A stretch of 62,302 nt of DNA, the filler included, from Collodictyon triciliatum (Eukaryota), in the NCBI GenBank assembly GCA_043381765.1. It is 5 parts of 5 records of this genome, joined end to end, with 100 filler letters (N's around TTAATTAATTAA, not from the genome) between each part and the next. Parts side by side here need not be neighbours in the genome. Positions count along the whole stretch, not along the records: positions 13,632 to 27,161 come from JBHJMP010001973.1; 4 more parts are not named here. One strand, written 5' to 3'. Made by a program: the position numbers and the translations under genes. The notes beneath the pieces were generated by a model. It did no database searches and was not told the DNA's origin. It saw nothing but the letters and a program-made list of their open reading frames with translations. This document shows positions 292 through 57,770 of the stretch, piece after piece. How positions within the stretch are numbered: position 1 is the first letter of the stretch; the number at the start of each line of letters is the position of its first letter.

Positions 292-6409
<6,118 letters not shown>

Positions 6410-6560
6410 GGCAGTATAAACAAACTATCATAACAAAACTGCCGTGTGAATCAAGAAGCAAAGCTGAGCGCGAAGCAAACCTCCCAAAAAAAAACCCCAA
6501 ACGCAGGGACACAGCGCAACAAACTGTAAAGCGCCCACTCTAAAATCAGCCCGTGATAGG

Positions 6561-9391
6561 ATGCCCATCCGCCGATTCTACCGAGTCTCGAGCATCGCAG
6601 CTCATCAGCTGCAGCGTCTCTCAGCCTTTCTTCCGAACCCAACACCCGAGTTGAAGCTTGAGTGGTGCTACTACGTCCAGTTTGACGAGTCGCCTCGAGC
6701 AGAAGACGCAGAAGCCTCACAGGAGGGTGACTTGACAAAGGATGAATACTCTGTTCTGATGTGGCTCTTGGCAGAGACATTTCTTCCTCAGGAGTTTGGA
6801 ACGGTGTCCTTCCTTAGCGAGGAGCAAGGTATGCACATTTTTTTGTTATCCTTTTTCTTAGCACTTTTTTTTTTATTAAATATAACAATTCTCTATCTTT
6901 TGATTGCTTTGCTTCTTTGTTTGCTTACATAAAAGCTGGTATTTAACCATAATTTTTTGGATTTTCATTTCCCTTCACATAATATCTTATACATCTTTTC
7001 AACATTATAATGCTGAGTTATTTCTACGTTTTCGACCTCACTTTTCAACTTTCACACTTTTCATAATACCTTCGTTCGCCTCATACATTATCCCTTCATT
7101 CACTTACTCTTTTCCCCTTCGTCGCTCATATATGATATTTCGTTTACTTCGATTCACAAATCCAACATTCCCTCCCCTTCAGTCTTATTTATTTTGCAAA
7201 CCACAAAAAAAAAAAAAACCCTGTGCTTATACATGTATTCTAAAAACTCATATGCTTTTGCAAATGTCTTTTGATACGAATATCCTCATTCAATAAAACA
7301 ACGAAAAAATGTGTTGAATCATACTAGGGTCAGTTGTCGAAGTCGGACCCCGAATGAACTTCACCACAGCCTGGTCAACCAACGCAGTCTCTATTTGCCA
7401 CTCATGCGGCCTCCAGCGCATTAATCGTATTGAGCGTTCGCGTCGATATTTGATTGGCGACAAACAAATTCCCCTCACTGAAGAACAACGCAGACTCTTT
7501 CTCTCCACGGTATTTATCCCTTAAACCCTGTGTTCTATATCTTATTTCAAACCACATATTATCATTACTACACTAGTACTATCGAACCAGGGTTGATTGA
7601 ATATGTATGATACCATAACCGAGCATGTCAAGCCATGCACGTTAATGAGATTCTCAATTCAATTACTTGCGCAATATGCATTCCAACGTCCTTCCACACG
7701 CAGATCCACGACCAAATGACAGAGTGTGAGTATCGCCAACCCTTGCAAACCTTTGAAACTGGTATCAAACCAGAGGCTGTTTTTGAAATCCCCATAATGG
7801 AACAAGGAAAAGCAGCTCTGCAAGAGATCAACACTAAAATGGGTCTTGCCTTTGATGATTGGGACATCGAGTACTATACAGATTTGTTTCTCAACAAATA
7901 CAAGAGAAACCCGACAAATGTGGAGTGCTTCGATATTGCCCAGTCAAATAGCGAGCACAGCCGCCATTGGTTCTTCCGTGGAAAACTGCTCATTGATGGA
8001 GAAGAAGTAATTTTTTTCTGGCTTATACACTTGACGTAATGAAATGTTCACTATTAGCTATGTATTGTTCACTTTTTAGATTTTTCCGGTATTTATCTTA
8101 AATATCTTGTTATCTGATGTTTTGAATACACCCTTTTCATTTACAGATTCCAACATCTTTGATGAAAATTGTGAAATCCACACTCGATGCTGACCCTGAA
8201 AATAACAGTGTTATTGCATTCAAAGGTTTTTTTTCCCTCAGCAAACAATGAAATAGAAATAGAAAATACAAACTTAACGCAAAAGTTCATCCATATACAT
8301 TCCCTCTCTTTTTGCCAATCGTCAATGCTATTTACAGAAATTAAACACACAATATATCATTTCCCGAGTCATTTATATTTGACATTTTTTACAATTTTAA
8401 AAAAACCCATCACATGGCCATCTGTGATACTTTTCTTGAACATGATGAACCATGAGCTCTTTAAATCACAAAAATTCAGATAATTCCAGCGCCATTCGCG
8501 GATATCCCATCAAAACAATTCTACCAGAAGAGCCAGGGAAACCTTCAACTATGACTGTGAAGGACGCTATTTATCACTTGATCTTCACAGCCGAAACACA
8601 CAAGTAATTATCACGTTTAAGGGGAGGAAATGCGAATCTCAGCATCGAAATTATAAGACTATTATTTCATTCTCATGAGCACCCCCCATCAGCTTCCCAT
8701 CAGGTGTTGCCCCATTCCCTGGAGCAGAGACCGGAACTGGTGGACGAATCCGTGATGGTTCAGCCACAGGAACAGGCTCGCTCCCAGTAGCTGGTACAGC
8801 TGCTTATTGTGTGGGAAATCTACACATTCCTGGATACAAGTTACCCTGGGAAGACGAGTCCTTCATTTACCCAGAGAATCTTGCTTCGCCACTGCGTATT
8901 GAAATCGAAGCTAGTAATGGAGCATCCGACTATGGCAATAAATACGGAGAGCCTGTTATTCAAGGATTCACTCGCTCTTTTGGTAAAACTGATTCACTGT
9001 GATATTTCATTTACTTTGCTTTAATCATCCAAGTATTTATTCATCGATCTACTTACCTTAGCCACGAAGTCTCTTTCTCATTCTACATCCCTTTTTTTTA
9101 TTTTTATTTTATTTTATTTGCAAGGTCTTCGACTTCCCAATGGCGAGCGACGAGAATATGTCAAGCCCATCATGTTCAGTGGAGGCGTTGGTCAAATTGA
9201 TGCTCGCCACACCAGCAAAATGCCTCCAGAGAAGGTTGCCATTCACTTTAATTTCAATAATTGACACCCGATAGAAAGCCTTTGGGACCAATCCTATATG
9301 CTCCTTTAACATCGAAATCAAGCGTTGCACGAAAACGCCTCAAAAGAATACATTTCTTGATCAAAAGATAGACCACCATTTTGAAGTTCCC

Positions 9392-9447
<56 letters not shown>

Positions 9448-12400
9448 TTTATTTTGAATATGACTAAAACAGCATATCTGTCTACATACTCACAAACGAT
9501 TTATAATGCTATTCCCTCTTCGATGATAGGATATGATTGTTGTCAAACTCGGAGGTCCAGCATATCGCATTGGTATCGGAGGCGGTGCTGCATCAAGCAT
9601 GCTTTCAGGTTTCTTTATCATCTCACTCCAACTGCTCGTGAACTCAGCAATCAGCTAACAAATTATGCCTTCTCTTTCGAATGGGGTTACACATATTCTG
9701 TTCACTAGTAGCATACAATTATTATTATTATTTTCCTAAAAAATTGCTGACGTGTGTTATTAGGGGCGAACGATGCATCTTTGGATTTTAATGCAGTGCA
9801 AAGGGGTGACGCAGAGATGGAGCAAAAATTCAACAGGTATGTTTTCCACAGAGACTGTACATCCTTCTTATTATTCAGTCGACTCACACAAAAGTCTTGT
9901 TGGTCAACGAGCGATTGATACTATTGATGTAGTCTATTACACATTTCGCAAGTAAAACAAACAATTTCTTTTCTTAAAAACAGAGTCATTCGGGCCTGTG
10001 TTGAGTTGGGGGAAAATAACCCAATTATATCAATTCACGACCAGGTTGAATGTTATTATGATTCACGCACTTAATCTTTTATTTGTTGTGGTTATTAATT
10101 TTTGTGGCAGAAAATCCAGCGGAAATTTGTGATTTAGTTAATTTTCTCACGTTACCACCATGATGTATTCCGAGCAAGTCATCTTATTTCTCTGAGTATT
10201 CCCTTTACTTACGGGTATTCTGATAAAGGGAGCTGGAGGCAATTGCAATGTTTTGAAGGAGATTGTGGACCCTGCCGGAGCTGTCATTGACATTCGAAAG
10301 ATACCTGTGGGAGACAAAACGTAGTCATGAATACATTTCTCGTAGCTTGAATATCTTTCTCTTACTATTTGTTCAGTTTGGTATTCAGATGTATATGAAG
10401 GAAGTCGATTGACTTTGAATAGAACGAATAATTGTGAATTATATACCAATCCTAGACTATCTGTAATGGAACTATGGGGTGCCGAGTACCAAGAAAACTC
10501 AGCCTTGCTAATCAAACCGGAGCATGCGAAGCTCTTTGCCGATATATGCCAGCGTGAAAGAGTGCCCCATTTCTTCTAAATATTACTATATCTACCCACT
10601 CACCTACAAGTTTTCCAGTGGCAATAATAATGACGAAAGTTCATCAATTAACCACCACCCCGCCCCACCCAAAAATTCCACAAGTACTATGCTTTCTTTG
10701 ACTCTGTATCTCGACTGGCTTTCTAGGCAACGTTCGCCTACGTCGGAAGAGTAACAGGTGACGGACGAATTATTGTCCAAGATTCACTGGATAACACAAC
10801 GCCCGTGGATATGGACTTGTCAAGGTATCTAGATTTACTTACTTCACACAGCAACAATTACATTTCCAATTTGTTCCTTGATTATACTTTATGGACTATT
10901 CACCAACTGAGCTTATCTATAATCTGCTCGTTAGTGTCCTAGGTGATATGCCCCAGAAGACCTTTACTTTCACTCGCATTCCACCAGTCCTGAATCCTCT
11001 TGCTATCCCCGAAAACACGTGTGTTGCTGATGTATGTATACCCAATCAACCAATCTCACCCATCCCTTGCATTATGATGTATCCAGAAAGCAAACAAAAA
11101 ACATAAAAACTTCAACCATATTTATACCATCGAGTTTCCTGTACCTTCACTTATTAATTCATTGAGTAAATAACATTCTAAATCTCTCTTTCGTTCGATC
11201 TTCTTTTTAGGCGCTCAACCTGATATTCCGCCTTGTCTCTGTCGGGTCCAAACGCTTCCTGACAAACAAGGTTGACCGAAGTGTCACCGGGCTGATCGCT
11301 CGTCAACAATGCGTCGGACCTCTTCAACTACCATTGTCCGATGTTGCCGTCATGGCACAAAGTCACTTCAGCAATACGGGCGCAGCCATTTCAATCGGTG
11401 ATTTTTTTATGAAGTTCAATCACTTTTTATTGAGCAAAATTATTTCTGTAAGATATTCAAATGAATATTCGATACTTTTTTTTCTTAAGAAATAAAGAAA
11501 AAGAAAAGCTTTCATCATGGTATCACCTTCGTAGAATTCAAAGTAATCTGAATGAGATAATCATCCTAATGGTAACTACTTATCCCATCAACTCCAAATT
11601 TCATGCAGGAGAGCAGCCCATCAAAGGACTAATTAGTGCCCCTGCAATGGGCCGCCTTTGTGTCGGAGAAGCTGTCACAAACCTAATGTGGGCTGCGGTC
11701 ACAGCCTTGAAAGACACAAAATGTTCTGGTAATTGGATGTGGGCGGCAAAGGTTTTTTTTCTCATACAAAAATATTCTTAGCTATGTTGTTAAAAAATTG
11801 ATGTGGTTAGAAAATGTGATGCCCTTCCGTTGAAACAACTATTAGATCACATTTTTTTGAAAAAAAGGGGAAGAAAAATAGCAATACTAATAATTCATCT
11901 TTAATTATTGGCCAGCTGCCTGGTGAAGGAGCACTCCTCTATGATGCATGTCGCGCAATGTCGGATGCCATGATTGCTCTTGGAATTGCTATTGATGGGG
12001 GCAAAGACAGTCTTTCCATGGCTGCCAGAACAAAGTGGAAGTTCAATTATTGCTCAATTTGATTCCTTCTCTTTTTGATTTCTTTCCTTTCTTGCTTTCT
12101 TTGCGGTTCAATCAATGGCTTCTCGGTCTTATTTTTCGTTTTCTTTCAATTACTTACTCGCTTAATCAATTTTGACATCCTGACAGAGATGAGATTATCA
12201 AGGCACCAGGGACTCTTGTTGTTTCATGCTATGCATCATGCTACGATATTACAAAAGTCGGTCTGAAAAAAAAAACATTGTGATACTTGCCAATACTACA
12301 AAAAGAAAAGAAGATTGGGGAATGAAACTGAATTATTCACAATATTATAGACGGTTACACCCGACATCAAACACGCTGGAAGCTCCATTTTCTTTGTCGA

Positions 12401-13269
12401 TCTTGCAAAGGGTCAAATGCGCCTCGGTGGTTCCTCGCTGGCTCAAGTGTTTAAACAAATAGGAAATGACGTCCCTGACCTTGAGGACACTGCACTTCTC
12501 CTGAATGCATTTAACGTCATTCAAGACTTAATTCGTCAAGGCCTTGTGAGTGCCCGCCGATTGTTTACTTCATCCATAATTCCGACACACTTCTACAGTG
12601 CTGGGAAGCTAGCAGCAATTCAAAGTGATATCGCTCAATTATCGGTATTTACTTTTAATTTTTTTTTATTATAATTATGTAATGCCTCATTTATAGGTTA
12701 GCGCTGGGCACGACCGCAGCGACGGCGGCCTCATCACCACCATCCTCGAGATGGCTTTTCCGGCTCTCATGGGCCTGGACATCGACATTCCCATCAACTC
12801 CGAAGCTGTTGAGCCGCTCCAGGTTTTGTTCAATGAGGAGCTCGGCTTTGTTTTCGAAGTATCAGTTGGTAATGATGAAGTAGTCAAAAGTACTTTCGCA
12901 AAAGCGGGTGTGCCACTTCAATACGTGAGTAAAGACAAATCCACAATAAAAATAAATATATAAGGAGGAACGATATCATCTATGTCAGAAGTATATTTCT
13001 TTCAATTCCTTTCGTTTTTTTTTTTTTTTTGCGATAATCTGACTCTTTCAGACTCGCTTTCTATTTCTTTGTAATTCATACAATTTGAAATAATCAAACA
13101 GATTGGAAAGTCTACAAACTCTGGCAACATAAATATCCGCATCAACGGCCAACTGGTTTTGGACACGGGTGTGCGTGATGCCTTGCTCCTTTGGGAAGAA
13201 ACAAGCTATCAACTAGACCGCCTACAAGCAAACCCATCCTGTGTAGACGAAGACAGAGAAGGACTCAAG
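6561..13269 (+). CDS. PFAS: Phosphoribosylformylglycinamidine (FGAM) synthase, large eukaryotic-type PurL; multi-exon, truncated by the contig end before the glutaminase domain
   Basis: Diagnostic motifs in order across exons: [139 protein letters not shown]. Confidence 0.97.
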
Positions 13270-13346
13270 TGAGATTTCATTCTAACATCAAGACTACCTG
13301 ATGTCTTTGGGTTGATTATAATGAAATAGTTTAGATAAATGAAGAA

Positions 13347-13531
13347 GACAAAAGAAAGAGACAAAAGAAAGAGACAAAAGAAAGAGACAAAAGAAAGAGA
13401 CAAAAGAAAGAGACAAAAGAAAGAGACAAAAGAAAGAGACAAAAGAAAGAGACAAAAGAAAGAGACAAAAGAAAGAGACAAAAGAAAGAGACAAAAGAAA
13501 GAGACAAAAGAAAGAGACAAAAGAAAGAGAC
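13347..13531 (+). repeat. 13-nt tandem repeat (AAAAGAAAGAGAC)n in a PFAS intron, ending at the contig break
   Basis: About 14 near-perfect copies, read directly. Confidence 0.9.
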
Positions 13532-13631
13532 NNNNNNNNNNNNNNNNNNNNNNNNNNNNNNNNNNNNNNNNNNNNTTAATTAATTAANNNNNNNNNNNNN
13601 NNNNNNNNNNNNNNNNNNNNNNNNNNNNNNN
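13532..13631. other. Artificial contig spacer N44-TTAATTAATTAA-N44
   Basis: The same 100-nt spacer, with stops in all six frames, occurs four times. Confidence 0.97.
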
Positions 13632-14434
13632 TTTTCTTTTCTTTTCTTTTCTTTTCTTTTCTTTTCTTTTCTTTTCTTTTCTTTTCTTTTCTTTTCTTTT
13701 CTTTTCTTTTCTTTTCTTTTCTTTTTCCTTTCTCCTGGGTCTTATTCGGCCTGTGACTAGATAAGCTTTATTACAAAGGTTGTGACGAACTTGGTTTTAT
13801 CGCTTTCAAAGCACAACAATTTTTATACAACGAAAGTGTACCGACATATACATAGCAATTTATTGCACAGACAACCATCGAATTAAACCCGGGTTGAAGA
13901 AAGCAGGAGCTTTGATGAATCCAAGAGACAACCTGAATAATATAGCTGTATGGTTAGTATATATAATAAGGTTAAAATTACTTAATAATCGCATTCTATT
14001 CCTATAATCTATTTATTTTTTTTTATCATTTATCTAATATAATCATTAAAATTTAAAAAATTACAAACAAACCCTTGCCTTGGCCCAGACAGAACCCACC
14101 CTATAAACCCGCCACCAAACATGCATTTCCAAAAAGCATCCTATCGACACTTGCAGCGGTAATCATGATGTTTGGGGCCGATATGTTGACTTTCAGTCAC
14201 AACGACTATACCGCCGTCCCTTCGAACTCGCCGAATCGGCTCTCGGCGTTTTGTCTCAAATCACTTGTAAAAAAAATTTTGTGCGTTTGTTTGCCACAAT
14301 GTGCACATTTTGAAAGTCTCGGTGGATGCTTCATTTTACATAAATTGAATTTATGCAGTTTTTTTTTTTTTATTATTATTAAATTGGCTGGTTGACTTGA
14401 GTTTTATTAAAATTGATAACTAAGTAGTTTTCTA

Positions 14435-16295
14435 ATGGAAAAAGTAAAACAAAGACTTTCAGATGAAGAAAAGAAAATGTCTTGAGTCTGAGAATCTAAA
14501 GTCTCTAAAACCATACTATCGAAATGTGAAGACATCTTTAAAGTCGATTGTAAAGAATGCAGATGACTATGACAAAATCAACGATTCGGCTTTTTCGTGT
14601 CATAATTTGGTTGCCGACACTTATCTGTTTGCAAGATGTTACATATTGAAATCACAACAACTCCCAACAATCGATGAAAAGTCTTTTTTTGTACTCTTTA
14701 AAGCCAGTCAGAGTAGTTTCACAAGATAGACCCACAAGATTAAAAAAAAAACTAGATTTGAGTAAAGAGATGATGACTTTTTATCTCAATGATTTTCGAT
14801 TCTTTTAGTCCCAAGAACGCTTTCCGTTGGTTGGGCTGTCTCATGTATTACCGTACTTGGCGAAGCAAATGTTAACAGCTTATCATAATAACACTAAGGA
14901 ACATTTTGTAAAGAGTTTATCGCGCTTTATAAATCAAAAAGTTCCTAAAGATGTGAATATGACGGAAGCAATTAAAAAGGCAGGGTTACGAAAATTAAAA
15001 AAAAAAGCCATCTTCAAGAATCTCGAAATACTGGAGCAATATAAAGAATGAGCTACAATCGCATTTGCATCATATCATTCCCAGCAATATTGTAAATGGT
15101 ATCGAATATATGGTCAAAGTCAATCCGAAGAAGTACATTCCATGTCTGATTTACATGAATCCCATTTTTGAGGACATTGGAGCCCAAACTGTGTCAACCA
15201 ATTTGTATAAGGACTATCAATATACAATGTCATATTAATCTAGATATTGCATGTTCGATAGGTCTATTAGTATCATCTGGAAAACATCATTACTGAAGAA
15301 TATATCAGGATGCAAAAAGACCATGTGGGATGAGTTCTTTGAAATGAAGAGGGTCTTTCATCAAAGAGACTAAAATTTCAAATGCAGGATACAAACAGAT
15401 GGGTGGGCGGTGTCATTATTCTTTAAGATAGGTATCTCAGATTCAAAATTCCAATTTAATCAAAAAAAAAAACTCAAGAATATGTTTATATAGATGAGCT
15501 TTCCGAAGAGCAGTTATTTTTATTAGCGAAAAAAATAGATGGAGTGGACGCTGGCAAGATTAATTTGGTTTACATGGTGTGTGAGACAGGTAAGAAATTA
15601 CGTTACACGACACATCAAAGAAGACATGATAGCAAATCTCTTGAAAATCACAAAATACTTTTGCGCGAGAAAAAAAGAAAAGTACGAAGCTTCAGGGATT
15701 ACATGGCAACAAATTTACAAAGTGCTGTTTCTTTTGGTCTCAGGACTTTTGAAGAGAATCAGCAGTTTGAGACATTAAGAGTATCTTTAATCGTTTTAGA
15801 GACAGAACTGAGTAAACATAATTCATGCACGGCCGATTATGAAAAATTTCGAGAATATGTATCTATGATATCAAGACACCAGATAGAACTATCCAGATTT
15901 TATGAACAAGTAACTTTTCGAAAGATGATATGGAGACAGTATGTTATTACAGAAAGAAGTGAATAGTTGTTTATGGATCGAATCGAAAAGACATTTGGCA
16001 AGGATGTTGTACTGGCGAATGGAGACTGGAGCAGAAAATCTCAGATGAAACATTTTACGCCAACAATTGGAAGAGCATTACGAAAAATACTATCCAAACG
16101 TTTTGAACCGGTTTGTGTAGATGAATCTAGAACCTCCAAGGTGTGTTGTAACTGCGAAAAAGAACTGGAATATATGAAACTGAAAGGAAACTCAAAAAAT
16201 GTATAGATTTCTCATATTTAAAGAATGCAATTCCTTAGAAAACAAACAAAGTGTATTCTTGACAAGAGACTTTAACAGCGCTTAAAAATATTCTC
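14435..16295 (+). pseudogene. Fanzor1 (eukaryotic TnpB-family RNA-guided endonuclease), disrupted by frameshifts and stops
   Basis: Reconstructs to about 620 codons. N-terminal VKTSLKSI, then YLAKQMLTAYHNNTKEHF, YMVKVNPKKYIPCLIYMN, RIQTDGWAVSLFF. RuvC-I GVDAG (Asp codon 15547). GDWS..MKHFTPTIG. RuvC-II VDESRTSKVCCNC (Glu codon 16123). RuvC-III RDFNSA (Asp codon 16268). Confidence 0.88.
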
Positions 16296-16344
16296 AAGAA
16301 AGTTCTTTTAATCCTTCAAAATATGCATACACCTCTCTTTTAAA

Positions 16345-16470
16345 AAAACAGGCTGTCGGGTCTTTCCTGGCAGCCTTCACTACTACACAATCTTTGTGAA
16401 ACAAGTGGCGGTGAGACCTTGGATACTGGCGCACAAGGTTTACCAATCGAAAGATGGTATACTCCTTCTA
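16345..16470 (+). ncRNA. Putative Fanzor omegaRNA scaffold (may extend to ~16585)
   Basis: Lies immediately 3' of the Fanzor ORF. 10-bp stem GGCTGTCGGG/CCTGGCAGCC (16351-16375, two G-U pairs). CACAA/TTGTG hairpin. GGTGAGACCTTG/CAAGGTTTACC stem (16410-16444). GAAA-tetraloop hairpin TACCAATC-GAAA-GATGGTA (16441-16459). Confidence 0.65.
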
Positions 16471-16489
16471 TTATGAGACTGAAATGAGA

Positions 16490-18790
16490 ACCAAAAGCTT
16501 CTTTTTTTACTCGAATTCTGAGTGAAATGTTTATATTATTATTTTCTCTCGCAAGAAGGTCAGAAATGATTATCTGAGAGTTAAGGAACTTTGAATATAA
16601 TAAATAGGTATGGGAATTGGGAAAGTTCTTCGTTTACGGCTTCAGCTTCTTGTGTGGGTATTTTACTTGCGATAAAATATTTGTGTAATCTCATTTGTCC
16701 ATATTTTCTCTTCGTTGGTTGCTCTGGATACTTTATCTATAATTTCTTTCATTACTCTTTTTTGAGCGTGTCCATGTACTCCATCAGATGCGCCTAATGT
16801 GCAGTTGGAGCTCGCGTTTTTCTTGGATGAGTTATCGTCTCCAGATATAACATATGAGAGGGACACTGCTCTCATCCAATCCTTCTTGGCTAACTCTTCT
16901 TAGAGTCTCATATATACTAACTGTATTGTTTTTGTTCCTATTTGGCTTGGTCTCTTGGCATCACAACTGCCATATCGATTATGTATACAGTTTTTGCGCA
17001 TTCTATAATGAACTTCTGATTCAGGTCTTATGGTCGATTTTTGGACTTTGAGCTCAAAGTTACTGTCGGAGCGTGTCATGGCGTATTGTTTTACCACTAC
17101 TTTTTCTATTTTGTTCCTTTTTCTTGTTATGTCTCTTGATGTTTTTTAGACTAAGATGTTTGCAAATACATGAAATAACTTCGTTGTGACGTCTGGCGTA
17201 GTGTGGTAGGTTTAGAGTGCATGGTTTGGCTTCATGGGAGAGTTCCTTTGTGCCCTAGAAGCGTAGTTTATATGTATGCCGTTACATAATACGATGCAGT
17301 CTTGTCGGATGGCACATGCAAGTGCTTTCTTTATAGAGCGTGTTCCTTTTCTGGGCCATTTGCTGGACTCTTGGTTGTAGATAGCTTCTTCCAGAGACAT
17401 GCCAAATAGAGCGCAGGGTGTTTTCTTCCTGCTATTTTCATTAAATTACTGGATTTGAGAGTATTTGTAACTGTGTGTTACTAAACACTCTCGATGCAGA
17501 TTTTCGTGTATTTGGCCATTAGTATTTCCTCAATTCGAGTGGTTAGGAATGTTTCTTTTGCCTTTTTCTCCATTGTGGGGATAGCAGTCTTCGTATGGAT
17601 TTTTAATATGTCACTAGGGTTAAAGCAAAAATCTATAAGCAGCCTTTTTGCTCGGTGTCGAATGCTGAATAGACCTCCTCCATTTTCATATATAGCCAAG
17701 TGGAGTCGGTAAACATGCAGCATTAAAAATACTCTCCCGCTTTTGATGAAATTTCTCCTTATCAAGTCCATATTTCTGAACTAATTCATACTCTAATGAA
17801 CAAGACCGATATGATAGTTCATTACTGACGGAGCAAATTGATTGATAGCTTAGAAGAGGCGTATGCAGCTTAGGTTTGATGCGCATAGTTTTTTTTTCTT
17901 GTATTCTTCTCTTCCTGTGCCCTTGTATTGGTTGTCTTAAATATTTAGTCTCTTTGGTCTTTTTAGATTCTTAGATGCCTGTAAGCTTCTTGTTGCCTGG
18001 CATATTAGTTATGACACGAGCATGTCTGGCTGTTGGCTGCTGATTTTCCTTGTTTATCTTGAGCTCTTTCTTAAATTCACTGTCTGTTGTATCTAGCAAT
18101 TTTTTCAAGCCACTCTTTGTTGGTTGCATTTAACTTTATACCGTTCACGAATAGAAATCGATTTGGCTTCTTTTCCTCGTGTTCACTGTATACACTTAGT
18201 CAGAGGACCCTCACTGGATTTTAGTTTACTTGTTATGGGTTGTATATTCAGGATGAGCAGCAGGAGCGAAAATGTGTCTCCCTGCAATATGCCATGTTTC
18301 ATTTTATCCATTCTCAGTATTTTTCCTTGGTGATTGATATTGGACGTCGCTTCTTTGTTGTGATTTCCATAAACTTTGCTATCTGTGAGGGTGCTTTTAC
18401 TCATGCGTTGTGTAAGTCTGAATTGCGATGCATCGTTCCCGTTCCTTTTTCTTTGGAATGAAGCAGATATTTTCTTTCGAGAAACGTCTGGATGACTCTC
18501 CAAGCCTCTCTGTTGTTCAATTCATGGCTTCCATTAGATATGATTGGTAAGTGTTCGTTTGTTTATGAAGAATCAATGTATCGGGTCGATTCCAGTCGCT
18601 TTTTGGCGGGGAGTGGCTTTAATCTTTCCAAAAGCCCATCTTTGTAAAATATCATCCACTCGCGGGAGGCCTTGCAATCTACACATTGTTCTCTTGCTCT
18701 CTACATTTTTGCGCATATACAATACAATTATTATTTTTCGAATACATAGGTTCAAGGTTTTGCGTATTATCGCGAGCATCGTATCATAAC
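16490..18790 (-). mobile_element. Degraded non-LTR retrotransposon (reverse transcriptase + CCHC knuckle + probable restriction-like endonuclease)
   Basis: Minus-strand fragments in the expected order: KATGIDPI (RT domain 0), GILQGDTFSLLLLILNIQP (QGD motif), TKYL, YRLHLAIYENGGGL (thumb), QCPSHMLYLETITH..SSNC (decayed CCHC), then FPYLFII / IIISDL..ENNNIN (decayed PD..D-like). Many stops and frameshifts. Confidence 0.72.
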
Positions 18791-27161: not shown

Positions 27162-27261
27162 NNNNNNNNNNNNNNNNNNNNNNNNNNNNNNNNNNNNNNN
27201 NNNNNTTAATTAATTAANNNNNNNNNNNNNNNNNNNNNNNNNNNNNNNNNNNNNNNNNNNN
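27162..27261. other. Artificial contig spacer
   Basis: N44-TTAATTAATTAA-N44. Confidence 0.97.
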
Positions 27262-29129: not shown

Positions 29130-32100
29130 GGAATTCAATGCCAATATTTAAAAATCAGGATTACGGTGGCATTTATTGGAGTTTTTCTGATGATATCATC
29201 GGGCAAGGCACATTCAATTACCAGGTAATCACATTTGATATTTAACCCTTTGATTTTCCTGATTAACGATTTCCATGAAATTTAGATGTGAGCATAGTAA
29301 AGAAGATTTGCGCTCGATGGATTTGAAAGAGGCCTTTCAAATATTACTTCGATTTTATCAGGATTCTTGTTATTCAAGTCTAGATGATGAATTTGAATAC
29401 CATCACTCACATGTAATGACAAATTCAAATACTGTTGATTACATAAAGAATGATCAAGTCTATTTGGATATGAATCTCTCAAACAATATTTTTTTGCAGG
29501 ATGTCTTTTACTCAGATTATATTTCAGTAAGTATACGAGACATGTATAAAGAGATTAAGAGGGAAAATGATGATATCCTGTTTAAAACACTCGCGCAATT
29601 TTACGACAAACTTGGCGGTGATGGTTGGTTCTTCAATTTTGGATGGAAAGATAAGGATGTGCCGATTTGTAAATGGTACGGAGTTGAATGTAATTCGGAA
29701 TGCACCGACGAAGAAAATTGGGCACATGTATGAAAAATTCATTCTAAAATAATCTTTATCATTTATTGCATCATCATAATCAAATTTCCCATTCCATGTT
29801 TTTTTATTCATTAATTGATAGGGTCAAATGTGCCCTGTAATTGGCTTGTCGATGTCCTTCAATAATATTCAAGGCGACATTGGGGAGACTGACCTTTTGG
29901 CTGGAAGCCTTCCAACTCTTAGATTTTTGGGTTTGGAAGGCAATCATCTGACTGGTAATTTTATTTTTTGAAAAATTCCTTTAAGTCATCCGGTCTCAAG
30001 ACTTCGATGATGTAACAGGAACATTCCCAGAATGCCACAACGCTCCAGTACTCGAATATTTGTGGCTGGGATCCAACCAACTGAGAGGTGATTTATAAAC
30101 TCTTTCATCGGTATAAATTTATAAGAACTATTTCATATCACAATTTAAAATACAAGGAACTGTTCCCGAATTTCAATACACCCCAATTCTCAAAGACTTG
30201 AGGTCAGGCGACAACCATCTAAGCGGTGATTTTTAAAATTATTCTATTAATTATACAAAACATCTTCGGGCTAAATATTGATAAAATAATAGGGACTTTA
30301 CCAGAATTCAGATATACTTCGATGCTTTATTATTTGGACTTAACAGCGAATCAGTTGAGAGGCAATTTTTTTCATTTTTGTAGATACTTGATTTGATTAA
30401 GGATTTATTTTCATTAATTTAAAATATTTCTTTATTCGATTTAAAGTTATTAATTCAAAAATAAAACGGGAAATGTTCCAGAATTTCCATTAACAAAATT
30501 GCCTCCAAGTATTATATTTGGCATTCAACCATCTAAGTGGAAATTTTATGAATTTTTATTGGTGATATTGATTCATATACATTAGTTTATAGCTAAATTG
30601 ACAACAATTACAGGAACATCTCCAGAATTTCAATTCACTCCGAGGCTCCAAAAGTTGTACCTGGCATATAACCTTCTAGAAGGTGTTTTTTTTTTTTAAA
30701 AAAAAGGTGCATCTTATTTGAAAATTGCGTATATCAACCTCTGTTAAAATCATAGGGGCTACCCATGAATTTCAATACACACCAGAACTTCAAGAATTGA
30801 TTTTGAGAGGAAACCAGCTAACCGGTTCTTTTTATTATTTTGTGCTAATTTGCTACACGGACACGTTCATTTCTTATCATCTAAATACATCTGAAAAAAA
30901 AGGAACAGCTCCAGAGTTTCAACTTACGCCAATTCTCAAAGTATTAGGCTTGGGAAACAACAAGCTGAGCGGTAAGTGTTATTGTTGGTTCACTGGGAAA
31001 ATTCGATACATATCAAACCGTTCTAAAAATTATAGGAACAGTTCCGGAATTTCGATTTACTCCTATTCTTCAATCATTATCATTGGACAATAACCAACTT
31101 CAAGGTAAGTAAAAATTTATATATTTGTCATTAATAAATAATGAAAACAAGTAGGAACCAAGATCTTCATAAATCGTAGGAAAGGTCCCAGATTTCCAAT
31201 ATACTTCTCTACTCCAACTATTGTGGATGGCAACTAACCAGTTAGATGGTAATTTCGATACTTTCGTAGCATTTTGCATTTAATTAAAGTATATTCTACA
31301 TTTTAGGAACTGTTCCGAAATTTAGCGGGTTAAAAAATATCATAGAAATGATAATTTCATCAAACAAATTAAGCGGTTTGTTGTATTTTATGATCTTTTC
31401 TGGAAAACCCATTAAATTAGAGTCGTATTTAGGAACGATACCGGATTTCAGAGACTCTAATAATATCGAGATTTTGGTTCTTGTTGATAATCATTTAAGT
31501 GGTGAGCAGAAAAATTTGGAGATATACAAACATTTTTGTTAAAAAAAATAATATGAATTTTATTAGGTCAAATTCCCGCCTTTCATAATTGTTTGAAGTT
31601 AGAACAAATTTGGTTATTCAAAAATCATCTGAATCAATCCTTTCCCTCACTCAATTTGCCATTATTGAAGATCCTTGATGTTAGCTTAAATCGAATTACT
31701 GGCACTATACCCAAAGACTGGATTTCTCCGTTAATCGAACTATTGGACTTATCGAATAATCAAATGAACGGGACCATACCAATCACTTTTGAGAAGCTTG
31801 ACAAACTGAAATCAGTAACCCTTTCCAACAATCGCTTCCATGGAAGTATGCCTACTATGTTATGGAATCTTCCTAATCTCATATCCATAGACTTGAGAAA
31901 TAATTCATTCTCAGGAGATGTCAATTTATTTATATCACCCTGGAGCGCACATGACAAGTATAATTACAATTACGAGACACTGATTCTAGATAACAACTAT
32001 CTTCACGGGGAGCTTAACTACAAAATTTTTGATCGTGTGACCAATGCGAGGACAATTAGTCTAAAGAACAATATGATATCGAAATTGGGCGACTTGGGAT

Positions 32101-52342: not shown

Positions 52343-55300
52343 TCACAGTGCGTAGCTGCTGACGATATTGGCGAACTTTTCCTCGTAAGCTTCTAATTTT
52401 TCTCTGAACTGTGATTTTTCCTTCCTGCCAAGCCCAAAATTGATTCTGGAAGAACAGCTTAATAGAGGTTTCAGTATAGCCCATGCAAAAGGAACAATGA
52501 AAGTGGTAATAAAAACGGAATTTAATCCAATAATCGCATAGGATATCCAATCGTTTCCTGGGATAAGTTTTTGAACAAGAGCTGCAAAGAATGAGATGTA
52601 AAGCAGCAACCAACAATTAGTGGAGAAAGTGTCATCCGAATCGAGAATGTATGGCTGGTACCGATTCTGCATCGATAACGAGAACTGCACAAGATAAAAT
52701 TGATGAATAATAAACATTTACCAAAAAGAACAATAAACAATAAACAAAAAAACAAACCAAATATCGATTTTTGTCTTGAAAAATGGCATACCTGTATCAA
52801 AATGAAGAAGATAAAGTAGAGAATAGCCGAGTATGTGTAGGGAACGACAAAAGCTGTCAAACTGAAGAGAACGGATTGGATAACTCGAATCATGACCCAC
52901 CAGTCGCATTTCTTACATAAGAAAAGCGAATTAGTATCTCCATTCAACTTTTGTTTTGTGCTTGAAATATCATCATTACCTCCTCATAAATATCAGCGAA
53001 TCGATCAATCAGAATCTGGCATGCTACTTCAAATGGATTTATTGGCAAATTCGCATGATTATTCGATGATGCCTGATGGGACATAGCTATTTGTCTCCCT
53101 GAATCACTTGGTCCGGCTTCACCAACAACCTTTTCAGAGGAATATACACCAGTTGCCTGAATCTCTCCATTAGCACCGATACTCTTCAGCTTTTCCATCG
53201 GGATATCATTTTCTGACAACTTTGTGGCGATTCATATTAGTTAATATTGCAAGACAATATGATATTATTTTATTGAAAAACAAAGTTTTAAAGGGATATT
53301 AAGAAAGATATCTACTCACATCGATGCCATTTTCTTTTCCCTTAAGTCTTCTGGCTCTTAAGACGATGTACCACAGAAAGCTGGGATACATGAATATGTA
53401 AATCAAGCCAGGAATAGCGGAGAGAAGCATGTTAAGGTAATTCTCTGTCACCGGGCTGCACTGAATCCAAGGATACAAATTTACGAACCATCTACCCAAT
53501 CCTTCATCATAGAGGGTGCAACCAAATGCACCAACTACATCTCGTACAACAGAGAAATATGTAGCTTCCAAGAATGTAAATGTAATAGCAACAACCTAAG
53601 ATTAAATATGATTCATTAGAGTATGCTATAAAGAAATATGACTGGTTGAGATAGAAAACTACGCGATGCTTATATTACCTTCCCAATATTTTTTGTATCT
53701 TTCTTCGCAAGTGTTCTCTTTAGGACAAGGAAAGCAACAAAAGCAATAAAAGGAATGCGGGCAAGATTAAGAATCGACGTAATATGTGGTTTGTTGCCGA
53801 CGACACACTCAAGGGAAGGTAACTTCAGTGAGAACAAGTTGCTAACAAATCTCCCAGCAGATGTAATGATAGATATAGAGACAACGTTCCCCAATACTTG
53901 CAGGATTTGAGTATAAAATAGAAAAATGTCCAAGGAGGCTGCCATTACACATTATTATGAAAGAAGGATTTAGCAGGGGCTGAATAGTAAAAAAAAGAAA
54001 AAGATTTCATTGCGAAACAAAATGGAATTACCCGAATCATGCTCATCTTCATTTCTTTCATCGTCTCTACTATCATCCATGCTTTCTTCAATCCATGCCA
54101 TCGCAATCTGATACATTCCACCAATAAACAAAAGCACAATAAAAGCAATCACTTTGATGAATGAGTAATCTGAAGAGCATTCGTTGCATTCTCCGCTCTC
54201 GAACAAGTATCCATCCTCACAAATAGAGCAACTTCTCCCCTTGTACCCTTTCTCGCACGGGAAATCATATGTATTGTTGCTTATGAGCATTCTTTTAGAT
54301 ATTGATTCTGGAATATGAAATCTGCACACGTCTGGATTCATGCACGGAATCATCTGGACTATTCTAAGAATATCTGGCGTAAAGTAGCACTTCTCCAAAG
54401 AAACACCGTCATTACAATCACAATCTCTTGGGCACTTCACGCAGCGATTTCCGAATCCAAAGTATCCAGGCAAGCATTTGCACATTCCATACTCGTGATA
54501 TTTTGGATCAATATCTACCTCCATCTCAACCAAACCTGAGCGAGAGACAATAGAAGGACATGAATATCTATCCATGGACCTCTCCAACTTGTAGGACTCT
54601 GTGATACCCATAAAAGAAGGAATAAAATCTAAAGAGTCATGTTTCATACCCGTATTTTTCAACCCTAAGTACTCAAGCTTTGAGAATCCGCCATAAGATT
54701 TTGGTATGCTTCCAACGATTGGATTTCCAGTAAGGTCGAGGGAAGTCCATTTCAATAGATTTGTGAGGTCATCCAACTTGAAAATGTTGTTGTTTCTTAT
54801 GCTCAATACCTTAACATTGAGGACGTATTCATATATCCTCCAGTTTAATTCTCCAAACAGTTGGTTATCATCAAGTAGAAGATTTTCATAAAAATAATTG
54901 AAATTTTCTGGGTTTGGAACAACAAAAATGCCAAGATCACCAGAAAATGAGTTGTTTCTCAAATCAATTGTTACTAAATTCGGCAGATTCCAAAAATAAT
55001 CAGGCAGGTTTCCAGAAAAATGATTGTGTGATAAAACGAGTGACTTGAGCTCTGACAAATTTTGAAAATATTTTGGGACAATACCATTCATTCTGTTCCA
55101 AGACAAGTCGATGTATTTGATTGAGGGTAATTTCCACGATTTAGTTATCGAGCCGCTAATCTGATTTTCGCTTACATCAAGTATTTTCAACATAGGCAAA
55201 TCAAACGTAGGGAGAGAACCATTTAGATTGTTTCTAAACAGCAAAACTTCCCTCAAGTTCAAGCATTCACGAAAAGAAGGGACGTTTCCTAGTCATGCAT

Positions 55301-57770
55301 CATTCATTTTAGTAAACACGTATACATATTTGTAAACATTATTTCTCACCACTCAAATTATTATTAACAAAATCCAAGGACGTGATGTGATGAAGGTCGC
55401 TAAAATCTGGTATTGGCCCTGGAGATATAGCAATTTAAGAGCTTTTTTTTTTATCGAAAATACGTGAACAATCAAACAGACCGCTTAATCTATTGGATGA
55501 AATTTTCAACAACTGGATACTTTGGATTTGACCGAATTTTGGAACTGTTCCTGAATGTAATGCTTAGTACTCCACCAATTACTTAAATGATAATACAAAA
55601 AAAAACCTGTCAATTGATTCAAGTGAAGATAAATCCGTTCGATATTCGAAATACCAGTAAAGTTCGGAATCTTTCCTATAATATTTGGTCAGTATTTCAT
55701 AAACAATTCTAAAAAAAATAATACAAATTCACCAGTTAATTGATTGCTGGAAAGAGAAATCGTTTTCACAACTGGAAAACCACTGAAGTTTGGAATGGTC
55801 CCTGCGATATGAAGTTAATTTCAATCAATGATGCAGAAATACTTATAAAAGGCACCTGTCAATTTGTTGCTGTACAGGTAAAACTGAGAAACATTTGGAA
55901 TGCCGCTTAAGTTTGGAACCGTTCCTGTAATTTATTCTTAGAATTTTGTCTGAATAGAAGATAATATAAAAAAAAAGCTCACCTATCAATTGATTGCTCG
56001 AGAGATAGACCTCAAAAACGTTTGGAATTTCACTGAAGTTTGGCACTGTCCCTGTGAGAAAATGTTAGTTCATTTAATTATATATATAAAGTAATCACGA
56101 AGCTTACCATCCAGCAGATTATTACCAAGATACATTAAGTTCAGATATGGAATACCACTGAAGTTTGGAACCAATCCTGTAATTCAGCTTTAGATTGTTT
56201 CATAATAATATAAAACATCATAAAATATACCATTCAGTCGGTTATTGTATAGAGAAATCCCAAAAAGATTAGGAATTTTGCTGAAGTTTGGGACCGTACC
56301 TATAATATAAATGTGTTATTTTGCCTTCAGAGCAGATGTAATAATAATAATAATAAAAAAATCACCAGTCAATTGATTGCTATTGAGATATATATCGAAA
56401 ACGTTAGGAAATCCACTGAAGTTTGGAACTGCCCCTGTTATACAAAGTTAGTGGCCGTCCAAAATATATTAAAAAAAAACCATAAAATATACCTGTCAAC
56501 TGGTTATTCTGAAGAAAAATCTTCAATATATTTGACAAGCCACTGAAGTTTGGAATCATTCCTAAAATCTGAATCATACATTGTTTCGTTCACATAAAAA
56601 ATTGAAATTTGATAAAAACATACCATGAACATTACAATCAGAAATTGAAAGAATTTGAACACTTGGTAATCCCGAGAAATCAGGCAAAATCCCTTTAAAA
56701 TATTTTTCGTTAAAAACTCAAAATATACTTCAAAAAATAAAAAAATACCAGTGAGTTTATCACTCATGCCTAATCGCAGTTCTTTTATTCTTGAAATCCC
56801 AGAAAAATCAGGAATAGTTCCTTCTAGTTTGTTCCCATATATCTGAATATGTTCAATATTGGGAACTCCTTTGAAGTTTGGAATCGTTCCAGTAATTCGA
56901 TTCATGTACAGGTCCAAATGTGAAATAGTTGGAAAATTGAAATCTGGAAGATTTCCATGAATAAAATTGTAGGTCAAGTCTAAATTATCCAATAGTGGCA
57001 GCTTCTCAAAAATCACAGAGGCAGCTTCGATGTCACCGTTGATATTGTTTCCTGGCATTCTGATTTCAACGACGGGGCATGTGTTGTTCTATGTAAAGCG
57101 ATATTAAAATAAAAGCAAAAAAAAAAAAAAAAGAGCAAAAAAATTATGGAAATCACCTCATAATTTTCACTCAGACAACTGTGGTGACAAGATATTCCAT
57201 ACCACTCACAAATCGGAATATTATGATTTTTCCATCCCGTATTCTGATACCAATCATCACCACCAAGATAATCGTAAAGTTTAACAAGGAGATTGTATTG
57301 AGTCCCGTTATTACTATTGTCATTATCACGTTTCCCTTCGTTTCTCAAAATAAATTCGTCACTTTCGTTTCGTTCTGGTGAATTACTTTCATGCAAATCT
57401 GCCTCAGCAACAGATTTTTTACCTTCATTAAGACACTCCACATCGTCCTCGTATGTGAGCAAACATTCTCTGCTAATATTACTATTCGTGGATTCAGAAA
57501 ATTCTCTATTCTCTCTAAGTACGAGACATGTTTCATCATAGTAATCCAACAGAATTTGGAATGCATCCTCTACTTTCATGCCCAGCAACACATCTCTTGA
57601 ATACTGGCATCTGTTTCAGTTATTTGAGTACAAATCGTGCTATCTGAAGTTTTTTTTTTTTAAAAAAATAATCAAAACATACCTTTGAGAAGGATGTATG
57701 GAAGATGTTGATAAAACCATGAAAGCAAGGGCGATTAATGTAACCAGTAGCTTTGAATTTCTGGCCGCAT
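52343..57770 (-). CDS. LRR receptor-like multipass membrane protein, paralog B
   Basis: Same architecture and intron positions as 29130-34454. Near-identical TM-region peptides (EATYFSVVRDV, WFVNLYPWIQCSP, SMQNRYQPYILDSDD, SLDIFLFYTQILQVLG). Start approximate. Confidence 0.85.
55350..56692 (-). repeat. Array of eleven 69-nt LRR exons
   Basis: Exons at 56624-56692, 56493-56561, 56366-56434, 56231-56299, 56108-56176, 55983-56051, 55856-55924, 55733-55801, 55607-55675, 55482-55550, 55350-55418. All are GT-AG flanked and phase 1. Confidence 0.88.

Follow-up and report, generated by a model that had tools for sequence, protein, structure and literature searches.

A decayed Fanzor1 gene copy of Collodictyon triciliatum in a repeat with many diverged copies in related public data

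We analysed a 62,302-nt stretch of DNA from the eukaryote Collodictyon triciliatum (GenBank assembly GCA_043381765.1; hereafter the window), which consists of five parts of five records joined end to end with filler letters between them. Positions 14463–16343 of its forward (+) strand, in the part taken from JBHJMP010001973.1 (13,632–27,161), very probably represent a pseudogene copy of a Fanzor1 gene that lies within a diverged, multi-copy repeat of at least 2.6 kb. Fanzor1 proteins, which correspond in eukaryotes to TnpB and Cas12, are under development as compact genome editors. In this well-described family, decayed copies are no surprise; the present one belongs to a subfamily that has seemingly multiplied in one AT-rich, intron-dense eukaryote. 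The dead copy is without use itself, and its value is that of a probe for other copies in the full genome.

The decayed Fanzor1 coding region

The window is eukaryotic DNA (∼35% G+C, microsatellite-rich, with several N runs). All six of its frames were searched with a profile of 606 positions built from 30 full-length relatives (alignment A1). Between 14448 and 16285 on the + strand lie stop-to-stop pieces with recognizable TnpB/Fanzor motifs, and nine to ten pieces of this strand match the Fanzor1 profile collinearly over positions 8–573 of 606, in the frame order 3, 1, 1, 2, 3, 2, 2, 1, 1, 2. The four best pieces have expectation values (E) of 6.6e-32, 7.4e-32, 4.8e-13 and 6.8e-13. Because these matches are strong and collinear, while the best match elsewhere in the 62-kb window on either strand reaches only E 0.15, the window holds one Fanzor1 copy, far beyond chance. 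Self-comparison of the window found no second Fanzor1 copy.

A frameshift-aware alignment to P0007 (634 aa), the closest intact relative, extends over DNA positions 14463–16379 and residues 1–616, with 261 identities among 591 aligned residues (44%). The ATG at 14463 (MKKRKC...) pairs with Met1 of P0007, and a TAA at 16341 is close to the natural end of the reading. The pieces abut or overlap, i.e. the reading is gap-free and intronless. The first-pass annotation of this DNA had joined fragmented open reading frames (ORFs) into one intronless Fanzor1 protein and contrasted it with intron-dense host genes. Both points hold: the collinear pieces account for ∼616 of the 634 residues of P0007, and the reading is gap-free where an FGAM-synthase-like gene of the host is split into at least 13 coding pieces. 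A frameshift that had been placed near 14480 is unneeded, the ATG at 14463 being aligned with Met1 of P0007.

Relative to P0007, the reading contains ∼7 frameshifts (near 14682, 15061, 15185, 15285, 15425, 16186 and 16283) and five in-frame stops (14806 TAG, 15049 TGA, 15371 TAA, 15457 TAA and 15964 TAG). The frameshift positions are approximate, as alignment to P0003 shifts them by up to ∼80 nt and gives a stop count of four. A working Fanzor1 requires an open reading frame, which these frameshifts and internal stops deny to the window's copy; it is unable to make Fanzor1 protein and is a pseudogene. The coding region and its motifs are as follows.

14463–16343 (+): decayed Fanzor1 coding region, from ATG at 14463 to TAA at 16341, with ∼7 frameshifts and 5 internal stops, as placed by the profile and the P0007 alignment
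15392–15403 (+): QTDG of the RIQTDGWAVS motif; T318, D319 and G320 occur in ≥90% of the 30-relative alignment
15547–15549 (+): RuvC-I Asp in GVDAGK, aligned to the invariant D372 of P0007; the next residue is Ala, not Pro
16021–16032 (+): GDWS; its Gly is the family-invariant G496 and agrees with published descriptions of an inert residue in place of the canonical RuvC-II Glu
16123–16125 (+): relocated RuvC-II Glu in VDESRTS, aligned to the invariant E530
16144–16155 (+): first CxxC of the C4 zinc finger, intact
16208–16219 (+): second zinc-finger CxxC, lost; Phe replaces both Cys (TTT at 16208 and 16217)
16265–16270 (+): RuvC-III Arg-Asp in TRDFNSA; the D at 16268 is the invariant D581

The family invariants D372, G496, E530, T533 and D581 are all retained in this reading and P373 is lost. 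In the second zinc-finger pair, the window has RFLIFKEC opposite RCLVCNGC of P0007, and one of the frameshifts falls between the first and second cysteine pairs. Directly after the RuvC-III RD, a frameshift and a TAA occur at 16283, and the motif resumes as LKNIL in the next frame. The earlier lesion list was exact for the TAG at 15964 and incomplete otherwise (i.e. for the frameshifts at 16186 and 16283, and the Cys-to-Phe changes at 16208 and 16217); the DPG-to-DAG change that it also counted is shared with other copies, so it is no private lesion.

Fanzor1 has been defined by the pattern D-X(125,275)-[TS]-[TS]-X-X-[C4 zinc finger]-X(5,50)-RD (Bao & Jurka 2013, PMC3627910). The window carries this pattern as D at 15547, T-S at 16132–16137 (194 residues on), K-V, CxxC at 16144–16155 and RD at 16265–16270, the second Cys pair of the zinc finger having become Phe-x-x-Phe in this copy. 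The same source describes an extra Gly and Glu specific to Fanzor1 (G500/E536 of SPu-1-1p), and a rearranged RuvC-II has been described whose canonical Glu is exchanged for an inert Pro or Gly, with another Glu further downstream (PMC10530073). In the window, the G (16021) and the E (16123) are 34 residues apart; both are invariant in 30/30 relatives, and GDWS and the relocated Glu align with equivalent motifs of SpuFz1 and PpFz1. Going by these two sources (PMC10530073, PMC3627910), the Gly would occupy the position of the canonical RuvC-II Glu in space. For SpuFz1, the metal ligands are given as E541, D383, N385 and D606, together with a CCCC zinc finger (PMC10432273). The three RuvC acidic residues called at first pass (D 15547, E 16123 and D 16268) proved exact, being aligned to the invariant D372, E530 and D581, and the rearranged site described there (GDWS and a later Glu before CxxC) agrees with the SpuFz1/PpFz1 alignment and the published RuvC pattern.

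We then compared the locus with solved structures. In a phmmer search of PDB with the window's RuvC piece, the best matches were PpFz1 (E 1.5e-11, over query residues 151–244), SpuFz1 (7.2e-07) and GtFz1 of Guillardia theta (0.16). The 30-relative profile matches the same three solved Fanzor1 proteins over nearly the full extent of the profile (PpFz1, E 1.5e-93; SpuFz1, 4.8e-90; GtFz1, 5.8e-76). Apart from these, the profile matches only two TranC chains at E ≤ 0.01 (both near 5e-4), and none of the Fanzor2, TnpB and Cas12 chains reaches E 0.01. A fold was predicted with AlphaFold2 for P0007, not for the broken window copy, with a predicted local distance difference test score (pLDDT) of 84.8 and a predicted template-modelling score (pTM) of 0.82. 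Template-modelling (TM) scores of this model are 0.78/0.81 against SpuFz1, 0.69–0.73 (query length) against PpFz1 and 0.67/0.70 against GtFz1, compared with 0.22 for ApmFz2, 0.21 for TnpB (8h1j) and 0.23 for Cas12f. The RuvC-piece search, the family profile and the fold of the closest intact relative support the assignment of the locus to Fanzor1. Two of the checks proposed at first pass came out in favour of this assignment: in the search against Fanzor/TnpB sets, the window's pieces match a Fanzor1 profile that in turn matches three solved Fanzor1 proteins and no TnpB, and the AlphaFold model, run on P0007, superposes on SpuFz1 with the TM scores given above.

Relatives are numerous. Among 1.84 billion representatives, 1622 were found at E ≤ 1e-3, 647 at E ≤ 1e-10 and 21 at E ≤ 1e-30, mostly of 600–700 aa; P0007, at 50% identity, is the closest full-length one, and the relatives retrieved by cluster look-up are all on short contigs. 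Fanzors average 620 aa and are known throughout the eukaryotes as well as from giant viruses, a single genome carrying as many as 122 copies (PMC10530073).

The nearest described systems share different parts of this picture. SpuFz1 (Spizellomyces punctatus, element SPu-1; PDB 8GKH, 9CEU–9CEZ) resembles the locus in the profile, the fold of P0007, the GDWS and D-E-x-x-T-S-x-x-C motifs and the C4 zinc finger. It differs in that P0007 is only 22–23% identical to it in the structural alignment, and in that the window's copy is dead, has DAG for DP-x at RuvC-I, carries a 34-residue RuvC insertion and lies in a window where no 30-nt inverted repeats are seen. PpFz1 (Parasitella parasitica, PDB 9CF0–9CF3) heads both the direct search with the window's RuvC piece and the profile search, but is longer (∼720 residues modelled) and has the lower fold match to P0007 already given.

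The intact ancestor was very probably a Fanzor1-type protein of ∼630 aa, in which a basic N-terminus and a C4 zinc-finger nuclease lobe accompanied a single RuvC site (Asp, relocated Glu, Asp). By homology to SpuFz1, PpFz1 and GtFz1, such a protein would be expected to bind an omega-RNA encoded at the 3′ end of the element that carries it, and may have cut double-stranded DNA matching the guide next to a short target-adjacent motif.

The repeat unit and its copies in public sequencing runs

Copies of the locus were sought in public sequencing runs, and contigs from four of these (X1–X4) were compared with positions 13750–18000 at 80% likeness. The ten matching runs (freshwater/lake metagenomes and two runs of the coded organisms A and B, one study), with no RNA run among those listed, carry just 5–8% of the sampled words, a share that holds no information on expression or habitat. 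X2 placed 454 contigs (likeness classes 50/93/160/151), X3 447 (33/104/140/170), X1 15 and X4 37. The X2 and X3 contigs cover 13750 to ∼16450 at 80–100% likeness, with up to 24 contigs per position (X3 at 14110), contig depth not being equal to copy number. The Fanzor1 gene is thus part of a repeat unit of at least 2.6 kb with many diverged copies in related public data. Three further features belong to this unit.

13750–14462 (+): upstream part of the repeat unit, non-coding as tested; contigs bridge into the ORF, and Pfam is empty in six ORF pieces
15682–15783 (+): in-frame, subfamily-specific insertion of ∼34 residues in the RuvC helical region, common to P0006, P0077, P0088 and P0121
16344–16450 (+): 3′ tail that follows the coding region within the repeat, with an 11-bp-stem hairpin at 16350–16376; still covered by run contigs

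Positions 13750–14462 belong to the same unit as the Fanzor1 ORF because contigs bridge from the upstream ∼700 nt into the ORF (13812–14182, 14071–14463, 14131–14552 and 14209–14570). Contigs extending left of 13750 (four in X2, seven in X3 and two in X4) run on past the end of the compared stretch, so that the left edge lies beyond 13750, towards the N gap at 13532–13631. At the other end, all four runs still cover the bin 16306–16447, and the longest 3′ pieces among those listed end at 16378, 16386 and 16387. Positions 16590–18000 have no contig cover in X1–X4, where, by the caveat of the tool, lack of cover is no evidence. Judging from where cover stops, the right edge probably lies at ∼16390–16450. 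In the published SpuFz1 layout (PMC10432273), the omega-RNA comes from the 3′ end; an analogous layout here would place both the right end of the unit and an omega-RNA scaffold in the 16344–16450 tail.

The other copies differ from the window at several of its lesions. At 14807, all five X2 and all six X3 contigs carry T (TAG → TTG). An additional A follows 15280 in three contigs each of X2 and X3, a base is missing at 16282 in four X2 contigs and one X4 contig, and four additional letters follow 16199 in one contig each of X2 and X3; these three changes are the unbroken states at three frameshifts of the window's copy. Both TGT codons of the second cysteine pair are kept in the X2 loose-end consensus behind 16199. 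Other copies have frameshifts of their own (at 15670 and 16050) and in-frame three-letter differences (at 14654, 14812 and 15345). All of these variants are the best-supported ones, with 777 and 133 further rows besides. An alternative genetic code was considered for the internal stops and rejected, as TAG, TGA and TAA are all found in frame and the window's TAG corresponds to TTG in other copies.

A word-index search returned seven short ORF fragments, six of them 78–84% identical to the window's copy, on contigs of 500–631 nt. No intact close copy was found, and none of the full-length relatives found among the 1.84 billion representatives is more than 50% identical. The earlier suggestion that this lineage hosts, or hosted, its own Fanzor family gains support from the many diverged run copies and from these fragments.

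Two traits mark this subfamily. The Pro of DPG is invariant in the 30 full-length relatives, where the window has DAG. The fragments P0106 and P0121 also have DAG; over 15552, all X2 (six) and X3 (nine) contigs have GCA, a synonymous codon, and GAC GCA GGC stands in the consensus of one contig (X2 at 15532). Because the same Ala occurs in other copies and fragments, DAG is a shared subfamily trait and not a private lesion. The second trait is the 34-residue insertion, which is missing from P0007, P0003 and the remaining full-length relatives. An intron reading of the insertion was tried and rejected: it begins with GT, but nearby AG sites give lengths of 98, 100 or 118 nt, none a multiple of three, and three protein fragments of other copies hold it in frame with a one-codon difference.

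Mobile-element context and alternative explanations

Loci of relatives were found by pattern scans with a 9-row alignment (A3) of the conserved C-terminal part. Among 598 matched stretches listed for metagenome contigs, at least 501 are relatives; in IMG/VR, 268 of 362 matched stretches encode relatives, many on contigs named giant-virus metagenome-assembled genomes (MAGs). We kept 80 loci from each source (160 in total). Most of the 80 metagenome loci have one open, intron-free frame of ∼595–700 codons, and an ORF spanning profile positions 340–570 is present in 134/160 loci. A FastTree phylogeny was built from 196 sequences and 211 columns, with identical sequences and proteins <560 aa dropped (P0006 excepted). 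In this tree, the window's copy and the fragment P0006 form a pair (support 0.96) within a 12-leaf clade that also contains P0007, L002–L004, L010, L012, L025, L033, L050 and L051 (0.78). The 12 leaves fall in turn within a larger clade of 131 leaves that includes all 64 viral ones (0.86), a nesting that is only suggestive, as the loci were picked by query likeness and the root is a midpoint root.

Two loci of the 12-leaf clade reveal a carrier. L004 (174–3503) and L010 (3203–6518) share a 3341-nt unit with 80.6% nucleotide identity and 32-bp inverted ends. The unit is Tc1/mariner-IS630-like, with a DDE_3+HTH transposase (Pfam E 1.3e-13) divergent to an intact Fanzor1 gene; its right inverted repeat begins 17 nt past the Fanzor1 stop codon, and a hairpin lies just inside the right end. 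L010 is on a 254-kb contig named as a giant-virus MAG (also that of L082; 35% G+C in the fetched part), and the other contig is of 4.2 kb with 47% G+C. Relatives of this transposase occur in 30/160 loci, as counted in flanks of 3–6 kb on contigs many of which are short. The transposase of L004 itself is seen as two separate tblastn pieces, maybe owing to a frameshift. L038 contains two Fanzor1 ORFs (4525–6432 and 9665–11140) and two transposase relatives, and L060 likewise has two Fanzor1 genes within a few kb, which suggests tandem or nested insertions of one transposon family.

A Fanzor1 gene beside a Mariner-type transposase is an arrangement known since 2013, and elements with Fanzor1 only, between Mariner ends, also exist (PMC3627910); Saito et al. 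describe Fanzor loci without inverted repeats or transposase (PMC10432273). The window's copy groups with L004, L010 and P0007 and in this resembles the Mariner/Tc1-type Fanzor1 elements (PGv-1, PUl-1, PUl-4 and HMa-1; Bao & Jurka 2013). Unlike them, the window has no detectable transposase remnant, inverted ends or TA duplication, and protein identity is only 47–50%. In our view, the window's copy is most likely a derivative, either truncated or non-autonomous, whose decay took place in situ. The unit may have moved as a Mariner-type non-autonomous derivative mobilized in trans, or with a different carrier.

A broader scenario is possible, although we regard it as rather doubtful: the host lineage would have its own Fanzor1 subfamily (with DAG and the 34-residue insertion), derived from a Mariner-type radiation abundant in freshwater giant viruses and multiplied without a transposase of its own, of which some copies may be intact and active. 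If true, the subfamily would provide an RNA-guided nuclease that occurs naturally in high copy number in a eukaryote and has an unusual RuvC-I motif.

Several results weigh against a Fanzor1 copy carried by a mobile repeat of this host. (i) No transposase remnant was found in the window: the best tblastn match has E 0.69 and the best match of an 11-transposase profile E 0.83, neither near the element. (ii) Neither inverted or direct repeats bounding the unit nor the end sequence of L004/L010 were found in the window; the best inverted pair between 13734–14100 and 16340–16560 scores 21, and 50/200 shuffles are as good. The left end of the unit is hidden by the N gap at 13532–13631, and the true end may sit in or beyond it. 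(iii) The predicted fold of 16200–16450 on the + strand is not significant (z −1.5, 19/200 shuffles as good; on the − strand, z −0.28, also not significant), and Rfam gave no match on 13000–17500 but a chance-level MS2 hairpin (E 0.45). (iv) Pfam found no relevant family in the window's six own pieces, and PF07282 (Cas12f1-like TNB) is present at E ≤ 0.001 in only 16/30 full-length relatives. (v) The copy-bearing runs may come from organisms related to this species instead of from the species itself. No recombinase domain (as of an IS607 serine-recombinase neighbour) was found in the adjacent ORF pieces that were scanned.

Instead of a cellular transposon copy, the locus might be what is left of integrated giant-virus DNA, which we consider very improbable. 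The abundance of relatives on giant-virus MAG contigs in IMG/VR and the nesting of the window's clade with all 64 viral leaves speak for this explanation, and viruses have been proposed as spreaders of Fanzor1 by both Bao & Jurka and Saito et al. (PMC3627910, PMC10432273); intact relatives on Tc1/mariner-like transposons in giant viruses fit this published idea without extending it. However, the recurring unit is short and occurs in hundreds of diverged contigs with no long viral block, an intron-rich host gene lies upstream, no viral domain occurs in ten ORF pieces between 14057 and 19796, and the tree nesting is weak for the reasons given above. A pseudogene copy in a cellular repeat is also compatible with a family that originated in viruses and then spread in the host.

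It is more improbable still that the gene is intact in the organism, with its breaks produced by assembly errors (e.g. homopolymer miscounts) or by unrecognized introns. Frameshifts do fall at or near A-runs (14743–14752, 14996–15006, 15464–15474 and 16195–16200), and some run contigs have the single-base length differences at 15280 and 16282. Length errors cannot explain five internal stops of three kinds, nor the replacement of both second-pair zinc-finger cysteines, and an X4 contig that is 99% identical to the window retains the A of the TAG at 14806–14808; introns would have no space, as the pieces abut or overlap. Because of these stops and lost cysteines, and despite the frameshifts at A-runs, we read the locus as a pseudogene and not as an assembly artefact.

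A Fanzor2, an IS607-type TnpB or a bacterial TnpB (as a contaminant or recent transfer) has next to no probability: TnpB (ISDra2, 8H1J) and Fanzor2 (ApmFz2, 9B0L) share with Fanzor1 proteins the RuvC and zinc-finger lobe, the omega-RNA-guided mechanism and a transposon-borne setting, and PF07282 occurs in relatives, but they are much shorter, TnpB keeps the canonical RuvC-II Glu, none of their chains matches the family profile at E ≤ 0.01, the TM scores are 0.21–0.22 as opposed to 0.78 for SpuFz1, the ∼630-aa length and long N-terminal half are of Fanzor1 type, and the context is eukaryotic.

Other features of the window

The host gene upstream of the repeat unit, an FGAM synthase-like gene of PurL type at 7327–13263 (+), consists of at least 13 coding pieces that match Escherichia coli PurL residues 72–1008. 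Its C-terminal glutamine-amidotransferase part (PurL residues 1009–1295) is found nowhere in the window, and its last piece ends ∼270 nt before the N gap at 13532–13631. The gene may be interrupted by the repeat and microsatellites, or else the assembly may have a break at this point. The repeats flanking this N block (13433–13730) are mutually inverted, with arms that are 74% complementary. Four N blocks in all (13532–13631, 27162–27261, 37247–37346 and 50895–50994; also 6247–6279) lie amid microsatellites as two 44-N runs around 12 letters. They look like masked or scaffolded joins, and adjacency across them is not to be trusted.

Two paralogous multi-exon leucine-rich-repeat genes with Cys-rich and transmembrane tails are located at 29263–34454 (+) and 52343–57615 (−). 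By eye, they are alike at 31557–32843 and 53970–55292, and at 34068–34454 and 52343–52717; judged in this way from the ORF listing, the pair is a large inverted gene duplication. At 43122–44959 (−), beside a 421-aa ORF, there are long ORF pieces with repeated 'HEKALEYYHKSLEIRLKIFG'-type units that by eye resemble tetratricopeptide repeats and are broken up by poly-pyrimidine microsatellites read in frame.

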